From Xylographa opegraphella (taxonomy: Eukaryota), in NCBI GenBank assembly GCA_022813865.1, contig JALDZX010000019.1, positions 248,001 through 312,000 of the forward strand: DNA of 64,000 nt. Reading direction: 5' to 3'. A program made the position numbers and the translations under genes. Of this stretch, positions 14,111 to 56,220 are shown piece by piece. Numbering within the stretch: position 1 is the stretch's first letter; each line of letters begins with the position of its first letter. Under the pieces are notes generated by a model. The model ran no database searches, had not been told where the DNA came from, and worked only from the letters and a program-made list of their open reading frames with translations.

Positions 14111-14455
14111 TCTAACACAGCAATTTACCTAAGGTAACTTTCGGTGTGATGCCTGCTCATTCACACTCACCAACCTCCCTGTGTTAAGTGTTTTGCAATC
14201 TTACTTCGCACTAGCTGACTATATCTTCTTCTTCCTTCTCTCTCAATCCTTCTCTTCTTTACAACTACGGTTCTTACTGACTTTATCATCCTGATCAAAG
14301 TCACCATCTTTCATACATCTTCAATCTTGTACAGAGCTTCAGCTCTAGCATCACCATTCGTCACTCTTGCATAGGATCCTTGAGATTCTTTATCATCCAT
14401 CTTACATCCTTCCTCTTCTTCATTAACACCCACTTCTTACCTCCCCTCATACATC

Positions 14456-17400
14456 ATGATGCAGTTTTCTGCCTTGATCGGACTTGTGTGGCACACAGTC
14501 CTGGGCCTGTGGGCCAATGAAGAAGTAGCAGACGACGAGAAGATGACTTCCCTCCCAACCCCTACCACCCCGATCGTGGTTTACTCCACGGTCACAGAAC
14601 CTTTATACAGCATGCCGGCCCTCTTCTCACTCTCTTCCATCTTCTCCCTCATCTCGATGCTCGTCATCAGCATCATCTACCTCTCCAACCTCCCCGACCG
14701 ACTGTTCACGACTGCATCCCTGTCCTATTACAGGGGTCTCGGACGACGTCAATCCGAAAAGCTGCAAACGCTGATTGCCCAGCACCTGGTCGATGCAACT
14801 CAAATCGAGCGCCTAGAGATCGCTGTGGCTCAGCATCTCGAAAGCCTCCGATTGGCCACGGAGCAGCATGAAGCACAGTTACGGACCGAGCGACAGAATC
14901 ATCAGGCTGAGATCGGCAGCTTGAAGAGTGAACACGCCAGACAACTTGAGCATCTCCACCAGACTCACGCCAAACAAGTCGAGCATCTCCACCAGACTAA
15001 CGCCAAGGCAACCGAGCTTCAAGCAGCCAGGGAAGCGCAAGCTTCCGACAACCATCGCATCGCCCAAGATGCACTGCTAAAGAAGCTCCGTGAGTCACAG
15101 AACGCTTGCCGAACTGCGGATTCCAAGTTCGAGGAACTGGAAGTTCGTAGTGACCACCACATCAAGCTTCTGGAGAAGCACATCGAGGTCGTCGAGGCTA
15201 GAGAACGGCGAGCCCAGCATGAGCTTTCCATGGAAAAGTTCGTCGGCGAGGATGAATGGAAGAAGCTGCGGGAAGAGAAGCGGCTTGCCGAGGGCGATGC
15301 ATTTGCGGCCAAGATAGAGACAGAGCACAGCAACGATCACCGCCGAGAAGTCATTGCGATGTACATCGCACAAAGCGAGGATCTAGCAGCAGCGATCTCA
15401 ACCGAAGGCACAGCTACCCAGAAGGTGAAGGAGTTGGGGGTGGAAGTCACCCAGAAAGAAGCGGAATTGGTCGAAACTCGTGAACGCAACGGAGCACTTG
15501 AGGCATCGATCCTCCAAGTGCAGGCGAACCTTGCCGAACGAGACCAGCAACTAAGCAAGGCCGAGGAAGAAAATACTCGTGCCAAGCAAAAGCTGGAACG
15601 ACTAAAGAAGAAATTGCCTCGGGTGCAGGTCACAGCAACCGGGCAAGAACTTCAAGACGCGAAAGCGCAAATCGACAAGTTGAAGGCAGAGCTGACCGAC
15701 AAAGACTCTCAAATCACCAAGACCACTGATGATTTGAGGGTGTCGAACGACAGCCTCACCGCATCAAAGCTTGAAACCGCGACTATCAGTGCCCAACTGA
15801 ATAAAGTCAAGGTGGAGCTAGCGGGAGAGCAAGAGTCGTCGAGTGCGGAGCGGAGCGCACTCAAAACAGCCAAAGCCGAACTGTCGGTATTAAAAGGGGC
15901 AAGTGCCCGAGTTTATCTTGCTAACCAGACAATTGATACCATCCGGAAAGATCTGACGACAGCCAATGCAGACCTTGCGAAGAGCCAAGCAGAACTACTT
16001 GACTGTAAAGCCAACCTGGTGAGCAGTGATGCAAACCTGAAGAGCAGTCAAGCAGAACTGGACAAGGTCAAGTCGGATCTGGAGATATCGAAGGCGGCAG
16101 TCTGGAATCACCAAGCTACGGCAGTCCAGACGAAAGCCGACCTCACGAATGGTCAAGTGGAGCTCGACCGCACGAAAACATTGCTGGGCAACACTCAAGC
16201 AGAGCTGGCACAACAGAAGGCAACGCTAATGGACACTCAAACCGATCTTGAGAATACGAAAGCGGAACTCTTGGGCGTCAAAGCACATAAAGTGAGTTGC
16301 GACGCGACTATCCGGAAATATGAATTTCTCGGAAAGAAGCTCGAGGCTCAAGTGGCCAACCTGACTCAAGCGAATGACGGCTTGATGCAGGAAGTCAACT
16401 CACTGAAGCGCGACGTCCAAACTGCACGGGAAGAGGCGACATTGATGCGTCAGACCCAGGATCATGATACTACCATGAGTGCAGGTCAAGCAGAGAACGC
16501 CAAGATGCCAGCAACGACTGACGAACAGGATCGAACCTGTTCCGAAGACGCTGCGATGAGTGATGCAAACCAAACGTCGGAGAACGTTTGGCCGGAAACA
16601 TCGGGACAAGACAGTCAAGGGTCGGTCAAGGATGACCAAGAAATGAAAGATCAAGTTACTTGGGAAACACACTCGGGTACTATACCTGGTGTTCCGAGTA
16701 GTAGTCGTGAGCTAAACAACCTTGATCTGGAGTTGCTTGGAGAACAGCCCGAGACGTCAAATGTCCCCATTGCATCAAGTGATTACGCTTTCAATTTCAT
16801 GGCGCCACAGAATACCGTCTGGCCGCCATCGAATAGCGAAAATGCAGTGGATGAATCCGAAGAAGCACGCCCGGCAGAGGTATTGACAGAGGTGGATGAT
16901 ACAGCTCGCCTGATCGAAGAGGCACTGGGGAATGGACTTCCGGATCTTGACCGGTTGCCTGAACCAGTTCCAGTAACTTCGCAAGCAGGGTCAGAGCTGA
17001 TCTATGGGGATTACTTACCAGCCACCCAGTCAACACCTCAACAGCCCCTATCAGGTCTTCTTTATGGAGCCAGGTCACAGGCTCCAACTGAAGAAACATC
17101 GCTGTCGGCAGTTCCGTCAATGCCGGCAGCACCGCATATGGAAAGGTCCTCTGAGCTGAGGATCCAAGGCTCATCACACGGTGCGTCGCAGCAAGCTTCT
17201 TCAAAGCCAGTCGCGCATCCGGTGGAGCCAAGGACTTCAGACTCAAGTGGAGCTGTATTCGATCACGCTTTGATGTCCCTCAATGAGTGGACTCCGCCAC
17301 AGGAGGACCAGACTCAGGCAGCCATGGCCAGATTTGTTCCCGCGCCATTTGTACCCACGATGGTATCGAGACCGGCAGCAAGTTCTGTACCTAGATCGAC

Positions 17401-18253
17401 AGCACATCGTTCATCTCCATTCTCGACTCATCCTCGGTCAATTGCGCCCGTTGGTGTGTTCAGTCAAGCGATGAACGATGTCACGAACTTTCCTCCCAAT
17501 CCTCTCTCCGATGCGACATTGCCACCAGAGAACCCAGTGGAGATCTTTCCTCAATCCATGTACGGAAGTAGCAATACGCCTAGCCATATCCAGATTGTGG
17601 ATAATAGGCCCCCATCATTCCTCGCCAGTCTGATGAGACCTTCCGTACAGGCACCCACAGTATCCCCGGTCCACAGCCAAGCGCTTCGCCCATCGAGTCA
17701 ATACTCCGAAGCAGCGGACCAGGATCCACGAAGCAGGAGACTTGCGAATCCCGCTGATACGTCAGGCTCGCAAGTTCCTCGCTTTGACCTCGGGGTGATG
17801 AGTCTTCCTGGAGTCTCTGGACAGGGCGAATTTAGCCAAAGGTCGCCTCATTATGCTGTTCCAACAGCAGCGACCACGCATTTGGAGCCTGTTCGTCAAG
17901 GATTTGCAACACTACCTCATGGCAGTCGGCCACAACTACCAAGTGTTGCAACCTTATCCGCATTTTTGGGCCATCGAGTTCCAGCTGCAACCTCGCCCGT
18001 CCTCGGTGGTACGATCGATCGTTCGGTCCCTTTTCTTCATCCTCGCAATCCGCAGCCGCAGGCACCAACTGCAGCCAACCTTGAAGGGCCTGCGGCCGTG
18101 CTTCGGGCCGAGCTGGAAAGTGATTTGTACGAATCGAGCACCGAGGACGAGGAGGAGACGGAGGAGGAGCGAAAAGCTCGTATACTGGCGAAGCTCGCCC
18201 CTCAAGGGCAACGAAAGATAGCCAAGCCGAGGTCGAGGAAGCCTGCTCCATAA
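14456..18253 (+). CDS. Large intronless orphan: N-terminal hydrophobic/TM segments, long coiled coil, Pro/Ser-rich disordered tail
   Basis: 1265-codon ORF; TM-like LFSLSSIFSLISMLVISIIYL; heptad runs such as ADLAKSQAELLDCKANLVSSDANLKSSQAELDKVK; acidic-then-basic C-terminus. Confidence 0.8.
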   Translation: MMQFSALIGLVWHTVLGLWANEEVADDEKMTSLPTPTTPIVVYSTVTEPLYSMPALFSLSSIFSLISMLVISIIYLSNLPDRLFTTASLSYYRGLGRRQSEKLQTLIAQHLVDATQIERLEIAVAQHLESLRLATEQHEAQLRTERQNHQAEIGSLKSEHARQLEHLHQTHAKQVEHLHQTNAKATELQAAREAQASDNHRIAQDALLKKLRESQNACRTADSKFEELEVRSDHHIKLLEKHIEVVEARERRAQHELSMEKFVGEDEWKKLREEKRLAEGDAFAAKIETEHSNDHRREVIAMYIAQSEDLAAAISTEGTATQKVKELGVEVTQKEAELVETRERNGALEASILQVQANLAERDQQLSKAEEENTRAKQKLERLKKKLPRVQVTATGQELQDAKAQIDKLKAELTDKDSQITKTTDDLRVSNDSLTASKLETATISAQLNKVKVELAGEQESSSAERSALKTAKAELSVLKGASARVYLANQTIDTIRKDLTTANADLAKSQAELLDCKANLVSSDANLKSSQAELDKVKSDLEISKAAVWNHQATAVQTKADLTNGQVELDRTKTLLGNTQAELAQQKATLMDTQTDLENTKAELLGVKAHKVSCDATIRKYEFLGKKLEAQVANLTQANDGLMQEVNSLKRDVQTAREEATLMRQTQDHDTTMSAGQAENAKMPATTDEQDRTCSEDAAMSDANQTSENVWPETSGQDSQGSVKDDQEMKDQVTWETHSGTIPGVPSSSRELNNLDLELLGEQPETSNVPIASSDYAFNFMAPQNTVWPPSNSENAVDESEEARPAEVLTEVDDTARLIEEALGNGLPDLDRLPEPVPVTSQAGSELIYGDYLPATQSTPQQPLSGLLYGARSQAPTEETSLSAVPSMPAAPHMERSSELRIQGSSHGASQQASSKPVAHPVEPRTSDSSGAVFDHALMSLNEWTPPQEDQTQAAMARFVPAPFVPTMVSRPAASSVPRSTAHRSSPFSTHPRSIAPVGVFSQAMNDVTNFPPNPLSDATLPPENPVEIFPQSMYGSSNTPSHIQIVDNRPPSFLASLMRPSVQAPTVSPVHSQALRPSSQYSEAADQDPRSRRLANPADTSGSQVPRFDLGVMSLPGVSGQGEFSQRSPHYAVPTAATTHLEPVRQGFATLPHGSRPQLPSVATLSAFLGHRVPAATSPVLGGTIDRSVPFLHPRNPQPQAPTAANLEGPAAVLRAELESDLYESSTEDEEETEEERKARILAKLAPQGQRKIAKPRSRKPAP

Positions 18254-18859
18254 AGGTTTCTCTAGCAATTCGACAATCACAGCGTATACATCAGGTCGCA
18301 TTCCTCCTAGACACTCGACATTTACAGTCCCATTCGCAATGCATGAACAGAGACAAGGAAAGAACCCGGCAACGATCCGGATGAATCTATATAGACGGAG
18401 AGATTTTGTGACATGATAACCATTCTTCGACATACATACATGTAAGTAGCGAGAATGCATCGAAATGATCCAAGAAAAAAAGCTGACTAAAATAACAGGA
18501 AGTTTTTGTACAGTGGGAGAATCCCTGTCCTAAACCTCATGTCGCCGATGAAAGCGTTCTTCAGAGTAATGTATAATGGCAATCATTAGCCACGCTATAC
18601 TCTGGTCGAAGCTCCGGCAATGTCACGTATCGCATTACCAGTATCAATATCGGTACGGTGTTATACATCAAAAGTTGTTGGAATCCACTAATTTTATTAC
18701 AGGTGACTCCAATTTGAATCATGTATTAAGCCAAGCTGCTTCGTGTTCTTTTAAGAACGAGTCACTGAATATAAAGTATGCATCCATTATGACTCCCCAA
18801 TCGCATCACCAAAAACTAATTGCAAATAGTTGATCTGGAGGATTCGGAGAACTTTTCGT

Positions 18860-19790
18860 GTGTGATTTCATACATCAGGCCACATCGAAGCACATGTGTT
18901 CCCGGTCCTATGACAATGCCATTTATGGCAATCTCATCATCAAGTCCGGCACACACGGTGACACTTGTTCCACAGGTGCTTCATCAAAGCATTCACACTC
19001 CACCCCCTCCTTCAACCATGACCCACCCGTTGCCAGCCGCCCAAGAGGCTGGATAACTGCGCCTGAAGCGAGAAATTAACGCCAGGATTCGGGTCATGGG
19101 GATTGTACTTTCAAACGAATCCAATGAGGAGGCAAGACAAGGTGGAGCGAAAGAAGCTAAAGCCGGCGACGGAGAAAAGAATGGCGAAAGCAGCAAAAAT
19201 GGCTGCAAGTGGCGCTGAAACGCATAACACTTTCGGGAACTTCTTCTACGAGACGGCCAATGTGCCGAACCCGATTCCGCCGACGAAAACATCCTCAAGA
19301 GCCATGTATGGCAGAAATCCACGCTAAGCTATACTACGGTCGAGGCTCCGTCAAATTTCATGTATCGTATCGCTCACATCGATGTCGGTGCATCAGAACA
19401 CATCGAAGGATCTACATTACCAGATCCTCGACAATGCCTTTCATGGCAATTTCATTATCAAGTCCGGTACATCCGTCTACACCAATTCCATCAGGGCTTC
19501 ATCGAAGCACCTGCATCCCACCCCCTCCTCCAATCACCGCCCCACCCGTTGCCAGCCGGCCAAAAAGGTCGAAAGGCTACGCCTGAAGCGCAAAATCGAC
19601 GCCAGGATCCGGGCTATGGGGATCAATATTTCAAAAGATTCCCAAAAGGAGGCAGGAGAAGGTGGAGATGAAGGAATTGAAACGAAACGATCAAAAAGAA
19701 ATCGAAAGCGGCGACAACAAGCTGCTGACAACGCAGAAGCGGAAAAACTTCTTCTGGAACTGACGAGACGGCCGATGGGCCGAACCTGAT
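18860..19790 (+). repeat. Diverged tandem duplication of a ~450-bp block (about 18860-19300 and 19390-19790)
   Basis: Shared stretches [98 protein letters not shown]. Confidence 0.85.
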
Positions 19791-20580
19791 GCCGCCAATG
19801 AAGGAGCAAAAGAATGCGCACATGCGACATAATGCTTACGAGCACAAGAATGCTCACAAGCAAAAGCACGCGCACGATGAGAGCTCCAAGGCGTCGGGTA
19901 TGACTTCCAACCATCTCACGACTTCAAGGCTAACATAATACAGGACCTCGCCAAATCCTCTTCAGGAACTTTTACGACGGGACGGCCAATGTGCCGAACC
20001 TAATGCTGCTAATAAAGGAGCAGAACCATACGCATATGCGAAAGAATGCTTATTCGAATCGCACGCGCACATGCGAGCTCTAAGGCATCAGGTATGATTT
20101 CCAACGATTTTTACGACTTCAAAGGCTAACACAATACAGGATCTCGCCGAATCCTCTTTTGGAACTTCTACGACGGAACGGCCGATACGCCGAATTTAAT
20201 ACTGCTAATAAAGGAGCAGAATCATGCGCATATGCGAAAGAATGCTTACGAGCATAAGAATGCTCATTCGAATCGCACGCGCACATGCGAGCTCTAAGGC
20301 AAATGACTTCCAACGATTCTTACGACTCCAAAGGCTAACACAATACAGGATCTCGCCGAATCCTCTTCTGGAACTTTTACGACGGGACGGCCGATGTGCC
20401 GAACCTGATGCTGCCAATAAAGGAGCAAAACCATGCGCACATGCGAAAGAATTAATGCTTAGGAGCACGAGAATGCTCACATGCGAAGCGCACGCGCACA
20501 TGCGAGCTCTAAGGCATCAGGTATGACTTCCAACGATCTCCACGACTCCAAAGACTAACACAACACAGGATCCCGTCGAA
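19760..20580 (+). repeat. Four tandem ~200-bp units, each an exon plus a 46-48 nt intron
   Basis: Anchor RACGGCC at 19767, 19981, 20177 and 20386 (periods 214, 196, 209); a partial fifth copy near 19252. Confidence 0.92.
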
Positions 20581-20823
20581 ACCCGGGTGCTCAAATCATC
20601 CCGGGGACGGTTGACATGCATATTTTCAACCACAAAAAGCAAATCGACTAGTCGGTAGAGGTGGAATCCGTCGATCACGAAAGGAACGAATCGACTGGAT
20701 TTCATCGATCCACGCAAAAAGGAAATCGACTAGTCGGTAAGTGTCTCTGCTGGCTATTCCAGCATCTCCCCCTCTCGAGTTATTCGGAACCCCCGATGTC
20801 GCTAACGAGTATAGCATTTGAAA

Positions 20824-21420
20824 TACCTGTTCGCCGCGCTGCTAAAGCGGCGTGGCGGATGGAGGGAAGGAAATGGGGAGGGTGATGGGGAGAACTGCTT
20901 TTGTGTTTACCTGTCCGAACCGCGTTGCGAAAGCAGCGTGGCGGATGGAGGGAAGGAAATGGGGAGGGCGATGGGAAGATCTGCTTTTGTGTTTACCTGT
21001 CCGAACCGCGTTGCGAAAGCAGCGTGGCGGATGGAGGGAAGGAAATGGGGAGGGCGATGGGGAGATCTGCTTTGTGTCTACCTGTCCGACTGTGTCGCGA
21101 AAGCGGCGTGGCGGATGGAGGGATGGGATTGGGGAGGGTGATGGGGTGAACTGCTTTTGTGTCTACCTGTCCGACTGCGTTGCGAAAGCAACGTGGCGGA
21201 TGGAGGGATAGGATTGGGGAGGGTGAGGGGGGTGGAGGGGGTGAGGGGAGGGGACTTGGTTGTACCCATTCGACTGCGCTTGGGAAAGTGGCGTGGTCGG
21301 ATGGAGGGATAGGATGGGGAGGGGAGGAGGGGTGGAGGGGAGGGGGGGGGGGAGGGGGAGTGGAGGGGATTTGGGTTGGGTATCCCTGTTCGACTGGGTT
21401 GGGATGGTGTGGGCGAGGGG
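20824..21420 (+). repeat. ~85-bp tandem repeat (5 clear + 2 degenerate units), each a hairpin plus G-tract linker
   Basis: TACCTGT anchor at 20824, 20908, 20994, 21079 and 21164; degenerate copies at 21263 and about 21381. Confidence 0.95.
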
Positions 21421-21459
21421 TGGGGATGGATGGATGGACACCTACTTGGGGGATGGGCA

Positions 21460-21555
21460 GGGTAAGTTGGGGAGGGTAAGTATGGGAGGGGTAAGTATGG
21501 GAGGGTAAGTAGGGGAGGGTAAGTAGGGAGGTTAAGTATAAAGGGTAAGTAGGTG
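21460..21555 (+). repeat. Short G-rich tandem repeat (GGGAGGGTAAGTA-like, about 7 copies)
   Basis: GGGTAAGT recurs every 12-16 nt. Confidence 0.85.
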
Positions 21556-21875
21556 GAGGGGAGTTTTCTTCGAGGCCGACGACTGTACGATTTTGTTAAA
21601 GACTGGATGAAGAGGGAGATGAGGTACATTGTTGGGGGGGGGGGGGGAGTGGATCGGGAGGGAACGTGGGAAACGGGCATTCCAGTCAACCTAGCCAAGA
21701 CCATACCTCTGGGAATGAAATCCTCTTTTTTCTCTCTCTGTTTCTGTATCCTTCTCGATCTGGGAAGTCCATCTGCCCGTGACCCAGCCGCTGCCGCAGG
21801 CACATAATCTATGTTGGCTGCAACACCTCCACTTCAAGCCTGCCTGCCTTCTCACGCTTCACTCTGCCAGCGTCC

Positions 21876-22796
21876 CTACACACCCTCCCCCTCGTCCATC
21901 TCCTCCATCTCATACCGCCGACAAACAGCCTCCCACCCCCCCCTCACCACCTCGGCCTCCCACGCCCCCAACCTCCCCAGCGCCTCCCCCACCGGCACCA
22001 AATACGACTCATACAGCGCCTCCTCCGCGTCGACGCCCGTCCCCACATGCCTCACAGGCTCATACCCCCCCTCCTCCAACTTCACCCTCTCCCGCAGCGC
22101 CAAGCCATCCGGATACCTCTCCGGCTCCACATACAGCCTCCGCTCGCCAGCCTCCTCCCTCTGCCGCGCCCGCGCCTCCATCTCAGCCTCCACCCCCGGC
22201 GGCACCGTCTCCGCCACATACCAGAACAGCACGTACTGCGCGGAGGCGCGGCGCACGGGCGCCATCTGCAGGAGCAGCGGGTCTGTGACGAAGCGCGGCC
22301 GCGGCGCGTTGTGCGGCCGTGGCTGCAGCGTCGTCAGCGGCACGGGGAGTAAGCGGTTGCGGTAGCCGGATTCCTCGAAGCCTTCGCGCTCGGCGCCGGC
22401 GTTGCTGGCTTCGCCGGCGTCGCGCCGCCCTTTGGGGAGGAAGAAGTAGTCGTCGACGCTGTGTCGGCAGAGCACGACGCGCGCGCTCGCGAGGTGGTAG
22501 ATGGCCACGCCGCCGCTGATGATGAAGGCGGGGCTGGGGAAGGTGGCGCTGGAGGGGACGGAGGTGGGTGGTGGGGGGTGGGAGCGCGGGATGGGCGTGA
22601 AGATGGTGGATGGGGAAGCGGTGTTGCTGTTGTTGCTGTTGCTGTTGCTAGCCATGGTATCCTCAAAATCTCTGTCGGCACCAGGGCCGGAGTAGTGGCT
22701 AGAGCCCGGGCTGAAACTGGGCGCGGCCATGTGCTTGGGCTGAGTGGATGGTTGAGCGTGCGAGCGCGAGAGACGGCGGGCGAAGAGCTTTTTCAT
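21876..22796 (-). CDS. Nudix hydrolase
   Basis: Nudix box G-RRDAG-E-ASNAGAE-RE-GF-EE-S-GY preceded by FFLPKG. True start may be a downstream ATG (22730 or 22655). Confidence 0.88.
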   Translation of the reverse strand: MKKLFARRLSRSHAQPSTQPKHMAAPSFSPGSSHYSGPGADRDFEDTMASNSNSNNSNTASPSTIFTPIPRSHPPPPTSVPSSATFPSPAFIISGGVAIYHLASARVVLCRHSVDDYFFLPKGRRDAGEASNAGAEREGFEESGYRNRLLPVPLTTLQPRPHNAPRPRFVTDPLLLQMAPVRRASAQYVLFWYVAETVPPGVEAEMEARARQREEAGERRLYVEPERYPDGLALRERVKLEEGGYEPVRHVGTGVDAEEALYESYLVPVGEALGRLGAWEAEVVRGGWEAVCRRYEMEEMDEGEGV

Positions 22797-23432
22797 CGGC
22801 CGCGACGGAGGTGAGCATGGCGCACATTGTTTGTGCGGCCGGACTCACTCAGCGGTCGTGCGTCATGCGGGACTGCGTGGTGGGCATTCACGGTCGGTCG
22901 GGAACGGTGTGTTGTTGCGTGATGGGTGATGAGGTCTATAGGTAAGGTAGGTAAGGTAGGTAAGGTATCGTGGAGTGAGGTTGGGGCCGAGCCGCACATG
23001 CGCGCGCTACGGGCTGGGAAACTCTAGGTTTCACACAGCTTGGGATAGAGGCGAGAACGAGTACCTGCCTCACGAACATCTATACACGCACATCGAAAAT
23101 GCAGCATACTCGCACCGTGAAGAGATCCCTACCAATCAATCAATATACCTGACCACTAGACAGCGAAAACGCCAACTCCAAAGCACGGGATCCACAACAC
23201 CAAAAACGACACTCAATCCTATCCTTTGTCCATGGAACGAACTCCAGCATTTCTAGAAATTCTACTTCTTGCAATGCGCTAGGTGGGCCATCCCCTCGGT
23301 TACGGAGTACAGCACGCTTTCAACGCCACGCGAGGTGGATCTCATTCAGCTTCAACAAGCTTGCTAGCTACCAAAGTATGTACAACAACCACTCGCTCTC
23401 AAACCACCAAACCTCCCCCATACACCCCACCT

Positions 23433-35552: not shown

Positions 35553-35808
35553 TTGATTGGTTTATAGATTTTTCCTTCTTCAATTTTTTACGTTGGCCCT
35601 GGGCATGGCGTGGGTTTGCATAGCACTGGTGTCTGATGGCGGGCTGGTTCTTGGGATTAGACTTGCGGCCGAGCATGGTGAGCTGTATGCTGCGTTTCCC
35701 TAAAGAAGGTTGTGCCAAGCGGAGTGAAATCTTTGATTGGAGGAGTGAGGAGAATCATGTGGCGCATTGACACGGCTAGCTTTTTGCCGTCGTGAGTCGA
35801 TACGATAG

Positions 35809-36690
35809 CTATTCGTCTCCATTCCCTTCCTCGTCCTCTTCTTCGTCTCCTTCCTCCTCCGCCTCTTCTTCGTCTCCCGCATCGGCACCCCCCGTCCCAT
35901 TCGCAGCAGACGATCTCCGCCCCGACCTCCTCCCCCCCCGCTCCGCCTCACTTCCCCCCGGCTCCCCGTCCCCCTCGCCTGCCTCGCCCTCACCCCCCAC
36001 CCTCCCCACCTTCCCCACCCCCAAACTCTTCTCCAGCCTCCTCTCCAACCCCTCCACCTCCCCCCTCCTCCCCCCGGCATACACCCCCTTCACCAGCCCC
36101 GCAACCCCCACCTCCCCCACCTCCACCCTCCCCCTCGGCCCGACCACCCACTCCACGCTCTCCTCCCCGCCCGCCTCCCTCTCCCTCACCCTCACCACAT
36201 ACCCCTCCCTCTCCATCCGCTTCAACACCCTCTCCGTCTTCTCCCCGCCCACATACTCCCCCGCATTCACCCTCCGCAGCGCCCTCTCCAGTCTCGACTC
36301 ACTGCACCTCCCCCCCTCACTCAGATAAATCACACTCACGACGAACGTGTACAGGCCCACATACGCCGCCTCGGGCGCCGCGCTGGGGATCCTCGGCGGC
36401 GCCAGCACGGCCGGCGCCCGCAGCGCCGCCGGCAGCGTGGACGTGAGGATCCAGCCCGTGGGCGCGCCCGACGCGTTCCCCTGCGACGCGCCCGTGGCGC
36501 GCTGCGCGGCCCGCTTCTGCGACACCGTGATCTTTTCTTTGCTCGGCAGCGCCGTGAGCGTCATGCCGAAGGTGTCGCGCAGCGCGGCCTGCGCGGCGGC
36601 GAAGACGGGCTTGAAGGCGCGTGTGGACGTGGCGCCGAAGACTGCGGAGCGGTTAGCGGGCGAGGGAGAATTGCCTCGTGGCCTTGCGCT

Positions 36691-36752
<62 letters not shown>

Positions 36753-53827: not shown

Positions 53828-56220
53828 CTATACCGTCGTCTCGTCTGATGGTCTTGCCGCCACTTCGTCTCGGTCTGGATCGTTACCGCCCTCCAAGTGT
53901 CTGATCATCGCCCTTTCTCCCACGCCCTTCTCTTCCGACTCCAACTTTCGCATTTCCTGCCTACACTCGTCTTTCTCGAATGCAATCTCTTGCTGTTGCA
54001 GCTTGTACCACTGCTTGTGTCTCTCGCACCGCTTCTTCTGGCACACCCCTTTTCCACTCTCATCCGCATGCGAACTGTCTCCGTTTGTCATTTTCTGGTC
54101 CCCATCCTCGTCAATGGTAGTATTAGGAGCCGTGAGTACACCCGTCTCTAATGAGGTCTGACCATCGCTTGACGCACGCCACGTATCGAACTCTTCATCG
54201 GACCAGGTAAGGCGAGAATCGAAGCCACAGATATCCTTGACACCTTCCTTCTTTTTCAATTCCTCCAAAGTGCTCTTCGCCCTTGTCCTGACCAAGCCGA
54301 GAAATTTCTCTCTGACTTCGAGCGTTTCACGCTTGCGCTTGAGGGAAGTTCTTTTCGATGCTATATCTGCAAGCTGAGCTTTCTCTTCAGCGGTATAGAC
54401 GACCTTCAGCTTTTCCTTGCTCATCTGATCTCCATTATCCATTTCCATAGCGTTCTGATCGGGGCTTGCTGCTCTTGATGGGCTGAGTACTCCTTCCCCT
54501 AATTTGTTGAACTCCTCGATATCCTTGACTCCGCTTGTCAACGCCTTCAGCTCACCTGCATGTAGGATACCGCCACGCAGGTAAGCTTGATCGACGTCAT
54601 CATCGTTCTCGTTCTTCTCGTCGTCCTCAATTCCCACGTTATCTGTGATGTTTTCCTTCCTCCTCTTCCTGCCCACACCTGCAGCACCTGCACCCTTGAT
54701 ACCCTCGCTTTTCTTCGCATCTTTGCCAAGCGCACGCATAGCCATGAACTGTTCTCCATGTTGATCACAGCAATATTTTGAGGGTTTAGCGCCTGTAACG
54801 CGAGCGGGCTCCCGGCATGTATCCAACCGACACATTGGCTTCCAAGTTGTCTGACCCACACCATTCGCTTTACAATTGGGACCTTATCCATTAGCTATGT
54901 GGACACTCGAGCAATGGATAGACACATACAAATATACTTGTCGATTAGGTTACCATCTCTCTCGTTCATGTTGACACATCTGCCATGAAACCAGTCCTCG
55001 CATCCGCCGTCGCAACCTATCATCCATGTATGATCATCAGGTTTACGACAGATACAGAAAAGCTCTGAATCATCATCCACGTCGTCATCATCATTGGTGT
55101 CTGGATCCTTAGACATAGGAGCAGGAGAACTTTGCATTGGAGTGGTCGAGCCCTGTTTCCTGTTCCTAGGCCCTGGCGTTTTACTGGCACGACTTGATGC
55201 CGGTGTTCCTGATCGCTGCGAGATCGAAGTTCCATCCACACTGTCTAGATCGAGTTTACGCTTCTTAGCTGTAGGCTTTTTTATTGCACTTGCAATACCC
55301 TTCTTTTCGACCTTTTTCTCTTTGGGCGCTGATCGCTTCATAGCTGCAACAGGTTGTGGGGTACTCAGATGCCCATTCTCTGGGACTACTGCCTCCACTT
55401 CGGCTTGAAATCCTAACGTGCTGTCTTCGCGTTTCATAGCGACCACAGTTGGTGCAGGTGTAATATCGGCTTCAGCCGTAATCTGATCACTCGGCCCATC
55501 GAGCTGTTCCTGATTTGGTGAAAGCGCATGTTTACCATTTTGAGCAAAGCTTGCGCTCTGTTCCTCGACCTCTGGCTTTATTTCCTGTTGAGATCTGTCG
55601 AAAGGAAGTTCAGTCTCGTTCTGAGCAGCCATCGTCGATATAGATGACTTTATGACTCTAGGACTCGTAGGTACTGGAGATGGGTCCATCACTTGGTGAA
55701 AACTTGGTAAATGTTGTTCAGAAGTGTTGACTTGTTGATCGTGCTTGTCTACCAACGGCCCGTCGCGTAACGGAGCTTCTCTTGAATTATCTATCTCATC
55801 AGACACGGAACTGTTGAGCGGTGGTAGTTGTCTTGGCTCCCCATTCGAGATATCTGACAACTTCCTGGTACTCATCTGATTGTTATTCGGAGCATGGTGG
55901 TCGAAAGGTGGTGAGAACGAGGGTGATGAATGAGCGAGAGCGTGAGGCATTGGCAGAGAGATGTGACTAGAATCTGGTCGTGAGGTTGACTCAGAGTATG
56001 TTCTTTGACTGGAACTTGAAGGCATCATTGGCGTAGTAATGAAGTGAGTGGTGGAATGAGCGGGTGAACTAGTGGTGGCTGCGATTGCCAGAGCTTCGAG
56101 AGGTGAGGTAAGTGAGATATTGCGATTGTGTTGACGAGTCTCCCCATTCGGTGTTGTTTGAGCGTTGGCAGATGCGTCCGAGCTTGGGGCCGGATTGAGC
56201 AGATTTGCTAGCTTGGACAT
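53828..56220 (-). CDS. SPP1: COMPASS/Set1C PHD-finger subunit
   Basis: PHD FCICRKPDDHTWMIGCDGGCEDWFHGRCV...KYICPNC across intron 54883-54929; SKYCCDQHG, ICGFDSRL, CQKKRCERHKQW. Confidence 0.9.

Follow-up and report, generated by a model that had tools for sequence, protein, structure and literature searches.

The DNA analyzed here, a single stretch of 64,000 nt that we call the window, contains six to seven head-to-tail copies of a non-coding unit of ~85 nt. The copies span 20826-21460 on the + strand and consist of five well-kept units followed by an expanded sixth and a decayed seventh. Each of units 1-6 folds into a hairpin of 15-16 bp, far more stable on the + strand than on the - strand, with a block of G-runs on its 3′ side. 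The reading that we favor, at a probability of roughly 0.55, is that this array is a young, locus-specific, non-coding, GC-rich minisatellite that lies amid other tandem duplications in the spacer of two convergent genes. What we infer from the observations below is how it arose, the templating of some of its mutations and its lack of a selected function.

TRF placed the repeat at 20824-21231 with a period of 86, 4.8 copies, 90% matches and a score of 607. The motif that opens each unit was found at 20826, 20910, 20996, 21081, 21166, 21265 and 21385, giving lengths of 84, 86, 85, 85, 99, 120 and ~76 nt for units 1-7. An earlier, sequence-only reading had described an array of ~85-bp units at 20824..21420. 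The TRF result and the unit starts show that the array is real, but the decayed unit 7, which begins at 21385, moves its end to ~21438-21460, beyond 21420. Inner units 2 and 3 are near-identical and the outer units are more diverged; units 5 and 6 are longer because the G-runs in both have expanded. As had been pointed out, no reading frame is kept from unit to unit, since lengths of 85 and 86 are not multiples of three (84, 99 and 120 are). Two properties of a minisatellite, highly similar units of 10-100 bp in head-to-tail order and no conserved frame across them, were found.

The hairpins, all on the + strand, differ in their bulges and loops. The unit 1 hairpin (20826..20867) has 16 bp without a bulge and a TAAA loop, with an RNA MFE of -28.6 kcal/mol and a score of 64.2 bits against a covariance model built from units 1-6. 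Those of unit 2 (20910..20953) and unit 3 (20996..21039) are identical to each other and fold exactly as first proposed, with 7 bp, an AA bulge, 9 bp and a GAAA loop (MFE -24.9 kcal/mol and 71.3 bits for each). The unit 4 hairpin (21081..21123) has a one-A bulge, a GAAA loop and C-G as the third pair from the loop (MFE -20.8 kcal/mol; 69.9 bits), and the unit 5 hairpin (21166..21208) has a GAAA loop and U-A as the fourth pair (MFE -24.4 kcal/mol; 71.4 bits). In unit 6 (21265..21309), the outer stem is perfect owing to CCAT/ATGG and an inserted T that faces the bulged A, changes that the sequence-only reading had seen correctly. The result is an uninterrupted stem of 15 bp with a 9-nt loop (MFE -24.5 kcal/mol; 56.2 bits), in which the loop-proximal pairs are lost and one G.G pair occurs. 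In unit 7 (21385..21438), the 3′ hairpin arm is gone; the MFE is -7.9 kcal/mol and the score 17.2 bits (E 0.027), compared to 56-71 bits for units 1-6.

The description of the hairpins as GAAA-capped applies to units 2-5, where the loop is closed by C-G, but not to unit 1 with its TAAA loop, to unit 6 with its 9-nt loop or to unit 7, which has no loop. With the TAAA loop in unit 1 and the pairs or 3′ arm lost in units 6 and 7, strict conservation is seen in neither the tetraloop nor the stem. The sequence GCGAAAGC is present at the hairpin tip in four of the seven units; five more copies occur elsewhere in the window, so the motif alone is not diagnostic.

The fold of the array is strand-specific. 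Under RNA parameters, folding energies for the first 44 nt of each of units 1-6 range from -20.8 to -28.6 kcal/mol (+) and from -8.8 to -15.5 kcal/mol (-); under DNA parameters, the corresponding ranges are -8.0 to -12.1 (+) and -4.0 to -9.3 (-) kcal/mol. When 456 nt of the array were folded as one sequence, the + strand gave z = -6.1 (0/100 shuffles as good) and the - strand z = -2.4, and the centroid structure retained all five regular hairpins. A 44-nt scan of the 64-kb window for folds at or below -24 kcal/mol returned 10 places on the + strand, five of which are array units, and three on the - strand, none of them within the array. Further 44-nt stretches that fold this strongly lie at 54544 (-) and 62785 (+).

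With identical hairpins counted once, units 1-6 provide five hairpins, and standard pairs occupy 79 of their 80 stem cells, compared to 30-58% of cells in a control with partners slid by 1-3 columns; with unit 7 added, 96.1% of 103 cells pair. The variants claimed for the third and fourth pairs from the loop were recovered as described, the third being U-A in three units, U-G in two and C-G in one and the fourth U-G in four, C-G in one and U-A in one. Change on both sides of a pair is confined to the third from the loop (U-A, U-G, C-G). The G.G pair of unit 6 aside, every non-Watson-Crick pair is G.T on the + strand (G.U in RNA) and none is A.C, in agreement with what had been noted about the wobble pairs. 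Aligning the units had also been put forward as a check for covariation, and here the signal did not rise above column shuffles, in which the 3′ letters were exchanged among units. One score was 0.217 against a shuffled mean of 0.200 (207/500 shuffles as high, among paralogous units) and a second was 0.288 against 0.260 (241/500 as high); with only five to seven paralogous units, the power of such a test is low.

Stem columns of units 1-5 vary at a rate like that of the rest (7/32 stem columns vs 14/45 others, P = 0.44). The seven variable stem columns are all transitions and all keep pairing, which upholds the earlier statement that the stem substitutions in these units are pair-preserving. 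The variable columns outside the stem comprise six transitions and eight transversions (Fisher P = 0.015 vs the stem). We simulated seven random changes starting from the unit 2/3 stem and counted the trials in which all pairing was kept. With transitions only, the probability that all seven keep pairing is P = 0.046, and with the array's own non-stem mix of transitions and transversions it is P = 0.00014. For the spectrum of the neighboring repeats (97 transitions:43 transversions), a product computed by hand is ~0.003, and the transition excess by itself has P = 0.083.

The sequence-only reading had cautioned that strand-biased C>T and A>G drift from a palindrome would also leave G.T pairs. 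This part of the caveat is sound, as a simulation restricted to C>T and A>G on the + strand kept pairing in every trial (P 1.0), which is one of three outcomes that the same reading had named as refuting it, but the bias itself is absent from the four neighboring 209-bp units, where polarised single changes comprise seven C>T, two A>G, eight G>A and eight T>C. The five polarised T>C and G>A changes in the stem all fall on wobble pairs and each converts one into a Watson-Crick pair, for which we count a chance of ~0.4 to the fifth power = 0.01. With these wobble-to-Watson-Crick changes set aside, there remain a few C>T at C-G pairs and no matching G>A (P ~0.06, an estimate). A block of 17 columns, which takes in the 3′ arm and the first part of the G tract, shows no variation among units 1-5 (permutation P = 0.007); restricted to units 1-4, the same permutation gives P = 0.16. 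In unit 6, adjacent changes at alignment columns 3-4 and the inserted T all raise the identity of the two arms. We rejected RIP and CpG decay as sources of the transitions, with TpA/ApT at 0.38-0.66, (CpA+TpG)/(ApC+GpT) at 1.25-1.37 and CpG observed/expected at 0.9-1.15.

We note that these pairing statistics come from small counts on a feature that was chosen because it pairs, and that exchange of sequence within arrays makes the units non-independent. Given the small counts, the non-independence of the units, the breaks in the edge units and the prospect of templated mutation, the evidence for selection on pairing is suggestive, not decisive.

Each hairpin had been said to be followed by four G3+ runs. 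This is so in units 1-3, but units 4, 5 and 6 have 5, 7 and 11, so that all of units 1-6 carry at least four such runs on a single strand, as a CEB1/CEB25-type unit does. By G3+ counts and a relaxed G4 pattern, in which loops may reach 12 nt, the blocks 3′ of the hairpins on the + strand lie at 20864-20890, 20950-20975, 21036-21062, 21120-21146, 21205-21253, 21306-21380 and 21396-21425 and grow longer toward the 3′ side of the array. Under the strict loop limit of 7 nt, units 1-3 fail because their first loop is 8 nt. Nine of the 15 relaxed + strand G4 motifs in the window fall inside 20864-21677, where the mean G4Hunter score is ~1.1 compared to -0.07 upstream; the GC skew across 20-22 kb is +0.16. 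G and C tracts are a general trait of the window. An unbroken run of 62 G occupies 36691-36752, and adjoining it at 35800-36300 is a long C-rich low-complexity zone with many - strand G4 motifs.

Short-read contigs assembled from one public DNA run, the only one listed among public runs for this stretch, matched the window at 18300-22300, and the listed pieces agree base for base; no RNA run is listed for the locus. Their sole difference from the window is six extra G in the G-run at 21633, whose homopolymer length is uncertain or variable. As this run may be the source sample of the window, the agreement is not independent support. The two other runs of the same study match only the G-run at 21316-21368, with 80% likeness. 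Contig depth across the array is ~0.5-1.5x that of the flank, a figure that does not equal copy number, and short-read contigs cannot count near-identical units.

Within the window, the array is a single locus. The covariance model found only units 1-7 (the next best match scored 14.3 bits) and blastn found no further array copy; we therefore set aside a dispersed repeat or MITE, neither search having found a second copy in the window. Rfam 15 gave no match over the window at the gathering score, and at E up to 10 it gave three weak matches in 18250-21900, none inside the array. The searches that had been suggested for relatives of the hairpin, against Rfam and with a covariance model, thus yielded neither an Rfam family nor a copy outside the array in this window. 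A 21-base degenerate pattern, run against collections that hold few if any fungi, matched three metagenome and three prokaryote contigs, all by chance and at no more than 16.3 bits; these are single sites and not arrays, in contigs of 56-71% GC or from bacterial MAGs. A snoRNA, a Pol III gene and a Helitron end were weighed by eye, and no box motifs of these elements recur consistently across the units. A limited literature search on fungal lncRNAs and tandem-repeat stem-loops found no description of such an array.

The window appears to be of the filamentous-fungus type, with short introns bearing GTAAGT/GTATGA and CTAAC signals and a TRI12/MFS Pfam match; no tRNA or tmRNA genes were found across it. 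The array sits in a 3.6-kb spacer without a recognizable gene, between convergent ORFs. On the + strand, an open frame of 1289 aa with no Pfam family (14384..18253) ends 2.6 kb before the array. On the - strand, an ORF with a NUDIX domain (21876..22844; Pfam PF00293, E 2e-06) has its stop codon ~420 nt past the array end. With the + ORF ending at 18253 and the - NUDIX ORF at 21876, the array is downstream of both neighbors.

Other duplications surround the array. Upstream of it on the + strand, TRF reported a 209-bp tandem repeat (19866..20580; 3.5 copies, 79-82% identity), three units of which keep a 46-48-nt intron-like segment (GTATGA ... CTAAC ... CAG) at 19898, 20092 and 20521. The copy near 20300 gave no match in the strict intron scan, and its donor region appears shortened by eye. 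An older tandem duplication of ~415 bp was detected by blastn at 18873-19287 and 19391-19802 (71.6% identity), and the open frames differ between its two copies. Structure z-scores in the part upstream of the array are mostly near zero; in the second 415-bp copy, the 120 nt at 19394-19513 have low z on both strands (-4.8 and -3.5). A 25-bp direct repeat with 96% identity (20633-20657 and 20715-20739), which includes a perfect 10-bp palindrome, lies just 5′ of a putative intron. This intron-like motif (GTAAGT, GCTAAC, TAG; 20737..20814, +), called by a strict motif scan of the sequence, ends 12 nt before unit 1. It is the one feature that speaks, indirectly, for the last exon of a spliced + strand locus proposed by the sequence-only reading. 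Between 18 and 22 kb, the scan returned five such motifs on the + strand and none on the - strand, compared to 18 and 9 in the whole window, and three of the five are the copies inside the 209-bp units.

Directly 3′ of the array, TRF reported a repeat with a period of 14 bp and 6.0 copies (21454-21537), part of a stretch (21454..21550, +) that carries six exact GGTAAGT heptamers at 21461, 21475, 21490, 21504, 21518 and 21544. GGTAAGT is the 5′ splice-site consensus, and it occurs 19 times in the window where 4.5 would be expected. No branch point and 3′ site that would fit the row were found within 100 nt. A spliced model of 18254-21700 gave no ORF that spans the repeats, and the 153-aa ORF at 19328-19786 in the second 415-bp copy showed no homologue in a search of 84-268-aa proteins with an E cutoff of 0.01. 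Without a repeat-spanning ORF and with no homologue for the longest local ORF, the locus, if transcribed, is probably non-coding.

We propose that a founder of ~85 bp, already containing the 16-bp imperfect palindrome and four G-runs, would have been copied head to tail by replication slippage or unequal exchange in the duplication-prone 3.6-kb spacer. The hairpin in every unit would then reflect recent shared ancestry, homogenized by exchange within the array, while edge units 1, 6 and 7 would have drifted most and the G-runs would have expanded by slippage toward the 3′ side. Some of the apparently compensatory changes may have arisen at the DNA level, with the opposite palindrome arm as the template, as in unit 6, where two adjacent bases and one insertion could have made the arms more alike; the remaining stem changes may be C>T that happen to leave G.T pairs. 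When single-stranded, as RNA or as displaced DNA, the + strand would form a row of hairpins and possibly G-quadruplexes; such structures may stall polymerases and would keep the array unstable.

Several lines of evidence argue for the minisatellite reading: the 86-nt period at 90%, the near-identical inner units, the decayed edge and the G-run expansion from 85 to 99 to 120 nt; the duplication-prone surroundings with their 209-bp, 415-bp and 14-bp repeats; the lack of another copy in the window or of an Rfam family; stem columns as variable as the others, with covariation no higher than in shuffles; the altered loop of unit 1 and the lost pairs of units 6 and 7; the arm-matching changes of unit 6; the lack of an ORF across the repeats; and the commonness of G-rich tracts in the window, such as the 62-nt G run at 36691. 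We counted against it the pair-keeping transitions, the G.T-only wobbles without a strand bias in the neighboring repeats, the absence of a RIP or CpG signature, the invariant 17-column block and the intron-like motif 12 nt 5′ of the array on the + strand.

The array could instead be a row of structured RNA modules with which the terminal exon of a non-coding, spliced + strand RNA begins, an explanation that we regard as possible, with the odds against it. Each unit would supply a 16-bp tetraloop hairpin and an RNA G-quadruplex, and the array as a whole six or more identical sites where an RNA-binding protein could dock, or sites of cleavage by a double-strand-specific RNase. The + strand-specific fold (z = -6.1 vs -2.4) with G.U pairs only, the C-G-closed GAAA loop in four units, the invariance of the 3′ arm and the G-tract start in units 1-5, and the intron-like motif ending at 20814 with its five-to-none strand ratio between 18 and 22 kb all point this way, as do pair-keeping changes that are nominally unlikely under unbiased neutral models (P ~0.0001-0.05). 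However, covariation is not above shuffles, the unit 1 loop is not a GNRA loop, units 6 and 7 decay, and no Rfam family or pattern-scan homologue was found, the scanned collections holding few if any fungi. The units are also paralogues of one array, with few and non-independent changes, and stems of this length are too short for a Dicer-type precursor. We think it doubtful that the locus goes further and is a spliced fungal ncRNA whose terminal exon would carry six modules of hairpin plus RNA G-quadruplex, followed by six 5′ splice-site heptamers without a 3′ site. The same doubt covers, jointly with that exon, its putative action as a multivalent scaffold for the capture of U1 snRNP and an RNA-binding protein, and the conceivable effect of such a scaffold, which would keep the transcript bound to chromatin or stop transcription short of the convergent NUDIX gene.

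The position of the array, between a + ORF end at 18253 and a - NUDIX ORF end at 21876, is what a co-transcriptional or DNA-level barrier between convergent genes would call for, although we judge this rather improbable. On transcription of the + strand locus, the G-rich non-template strand would favor RNA:DNA hybrids, G-quadruplexes and hairpins that pause RNA polymerase II and help to terminate transcription before it runs antisense into the NUDIX gene, and the same structures could also stall replication forks. G-rich pause sites help transcription termination. The concentration of relaxed + strand G4 motifs in 20864-21677 (9/15), the G4Hunter score of ~1.1, the GC skew of +0.16 and the + strand DNA hairpins of -8 to -12 kcal/mol are consistent with a barrier; yet the window has other G- and C-rich tracts that are not placed in this way, and a barrier requires neither a hairpin nor a repeated unit. 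It is highly unlikely that the array serves as a series of sites to which a dimeric protein binds on DNA, such as a zinc-cluster factor reading inverted CGG/CCG with each palindrome as one site. Every unit is indeed an imperfect palindrome with CCG ... CGG triplets and units 1-5 share an unchanged 3′ arm, but the array is downstream of both genes and outside any promoter, and G.T-type differences between the arms would spoil one half of a symmetric duplex site. Scarcely credible, finally, is that the array codes for protein or is an assembly artefact. Open frames of 87-251 aa do cross it on both strands, but with periods of 85 and 86 the frame changes from one unit to the next, and G- or C-rich sequence is poor in stop codons through composition alone; against an artefact, the contigs of the public DNA run match the sequence in the listed pieces, though they may derive from the sample that was the source of the window.

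If the array is only a minisatellite, its repeat unit would combine two polymerase-stalling structures, a GCGAAAGC-capped hairpin and a G4 motif, and may bear a trace of palindrome-templated mutation. It could then be used as a marker or in tests of repeat instability, and would be unsurprising. If the pair-keeping reflects selection, the locus would be a repeat-built structured RNA with no Rfam counterpart in a filamentous-type fungus, and the adjacent row of splice donors would make its mode of action directly testable.

Among known systems, the Xist A-repeat is a repeat module of a long non-coding RNA. The likeness to it is one of design only: a GC-rich hairpin that recurs several times with spacers in between and would offer many equal protein-docking sites per RNA. 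The array differs from it in organism and unit length, its sequence is unrelated, and it is known as a DNA sequence.

Two further systems resemble parts of the unit. GCGNNAGC/GCGAAAGC is described in PMC13037366 as an extraordinarily stable DNA mini-hairpin, and exactly GCGAAAGC tips the hairpin in four array units. Relative to the mini-hairpin of that account, it caps a far longer stem in the array, and it is absent from units 1 and 6. In yeast, template switching between imperfect inverted repeat arms leaves homogenized arms and clustered changes, according to the accounts in PMC8604942 and PMC3820800. Changes of exactly the wobble-to-Watson-Crick kind are also a product of this process. Unit 6 resembles these yeast quasi-palindromes in being an imperfect inverted repeat in which clustered changes raise the complementarity of the arms. 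The yeast template switch is a mutational mechanism and not an element family, and its operation in the array would be read from sequence.

The closest known systems are the G-quadruplex-forming, GC-rich minisatellites exemplified by human CEB1 and CEB25 (PMC3486850). Unlike these minisatellites as they are described there, the array has an additional 16-bp hairpin and only six to seven units, lies in a fungal-type genome in the spacer of convergent genes, and is known from its sequence alone. In common with them, it consists of non-coding head-to-tail units of tens of bases that are GC-rich, with G-runs on one strand and a G4 potential in each unit, which is predicted here. By analogy with CEB1 and CEB25, the array is probably unstable.
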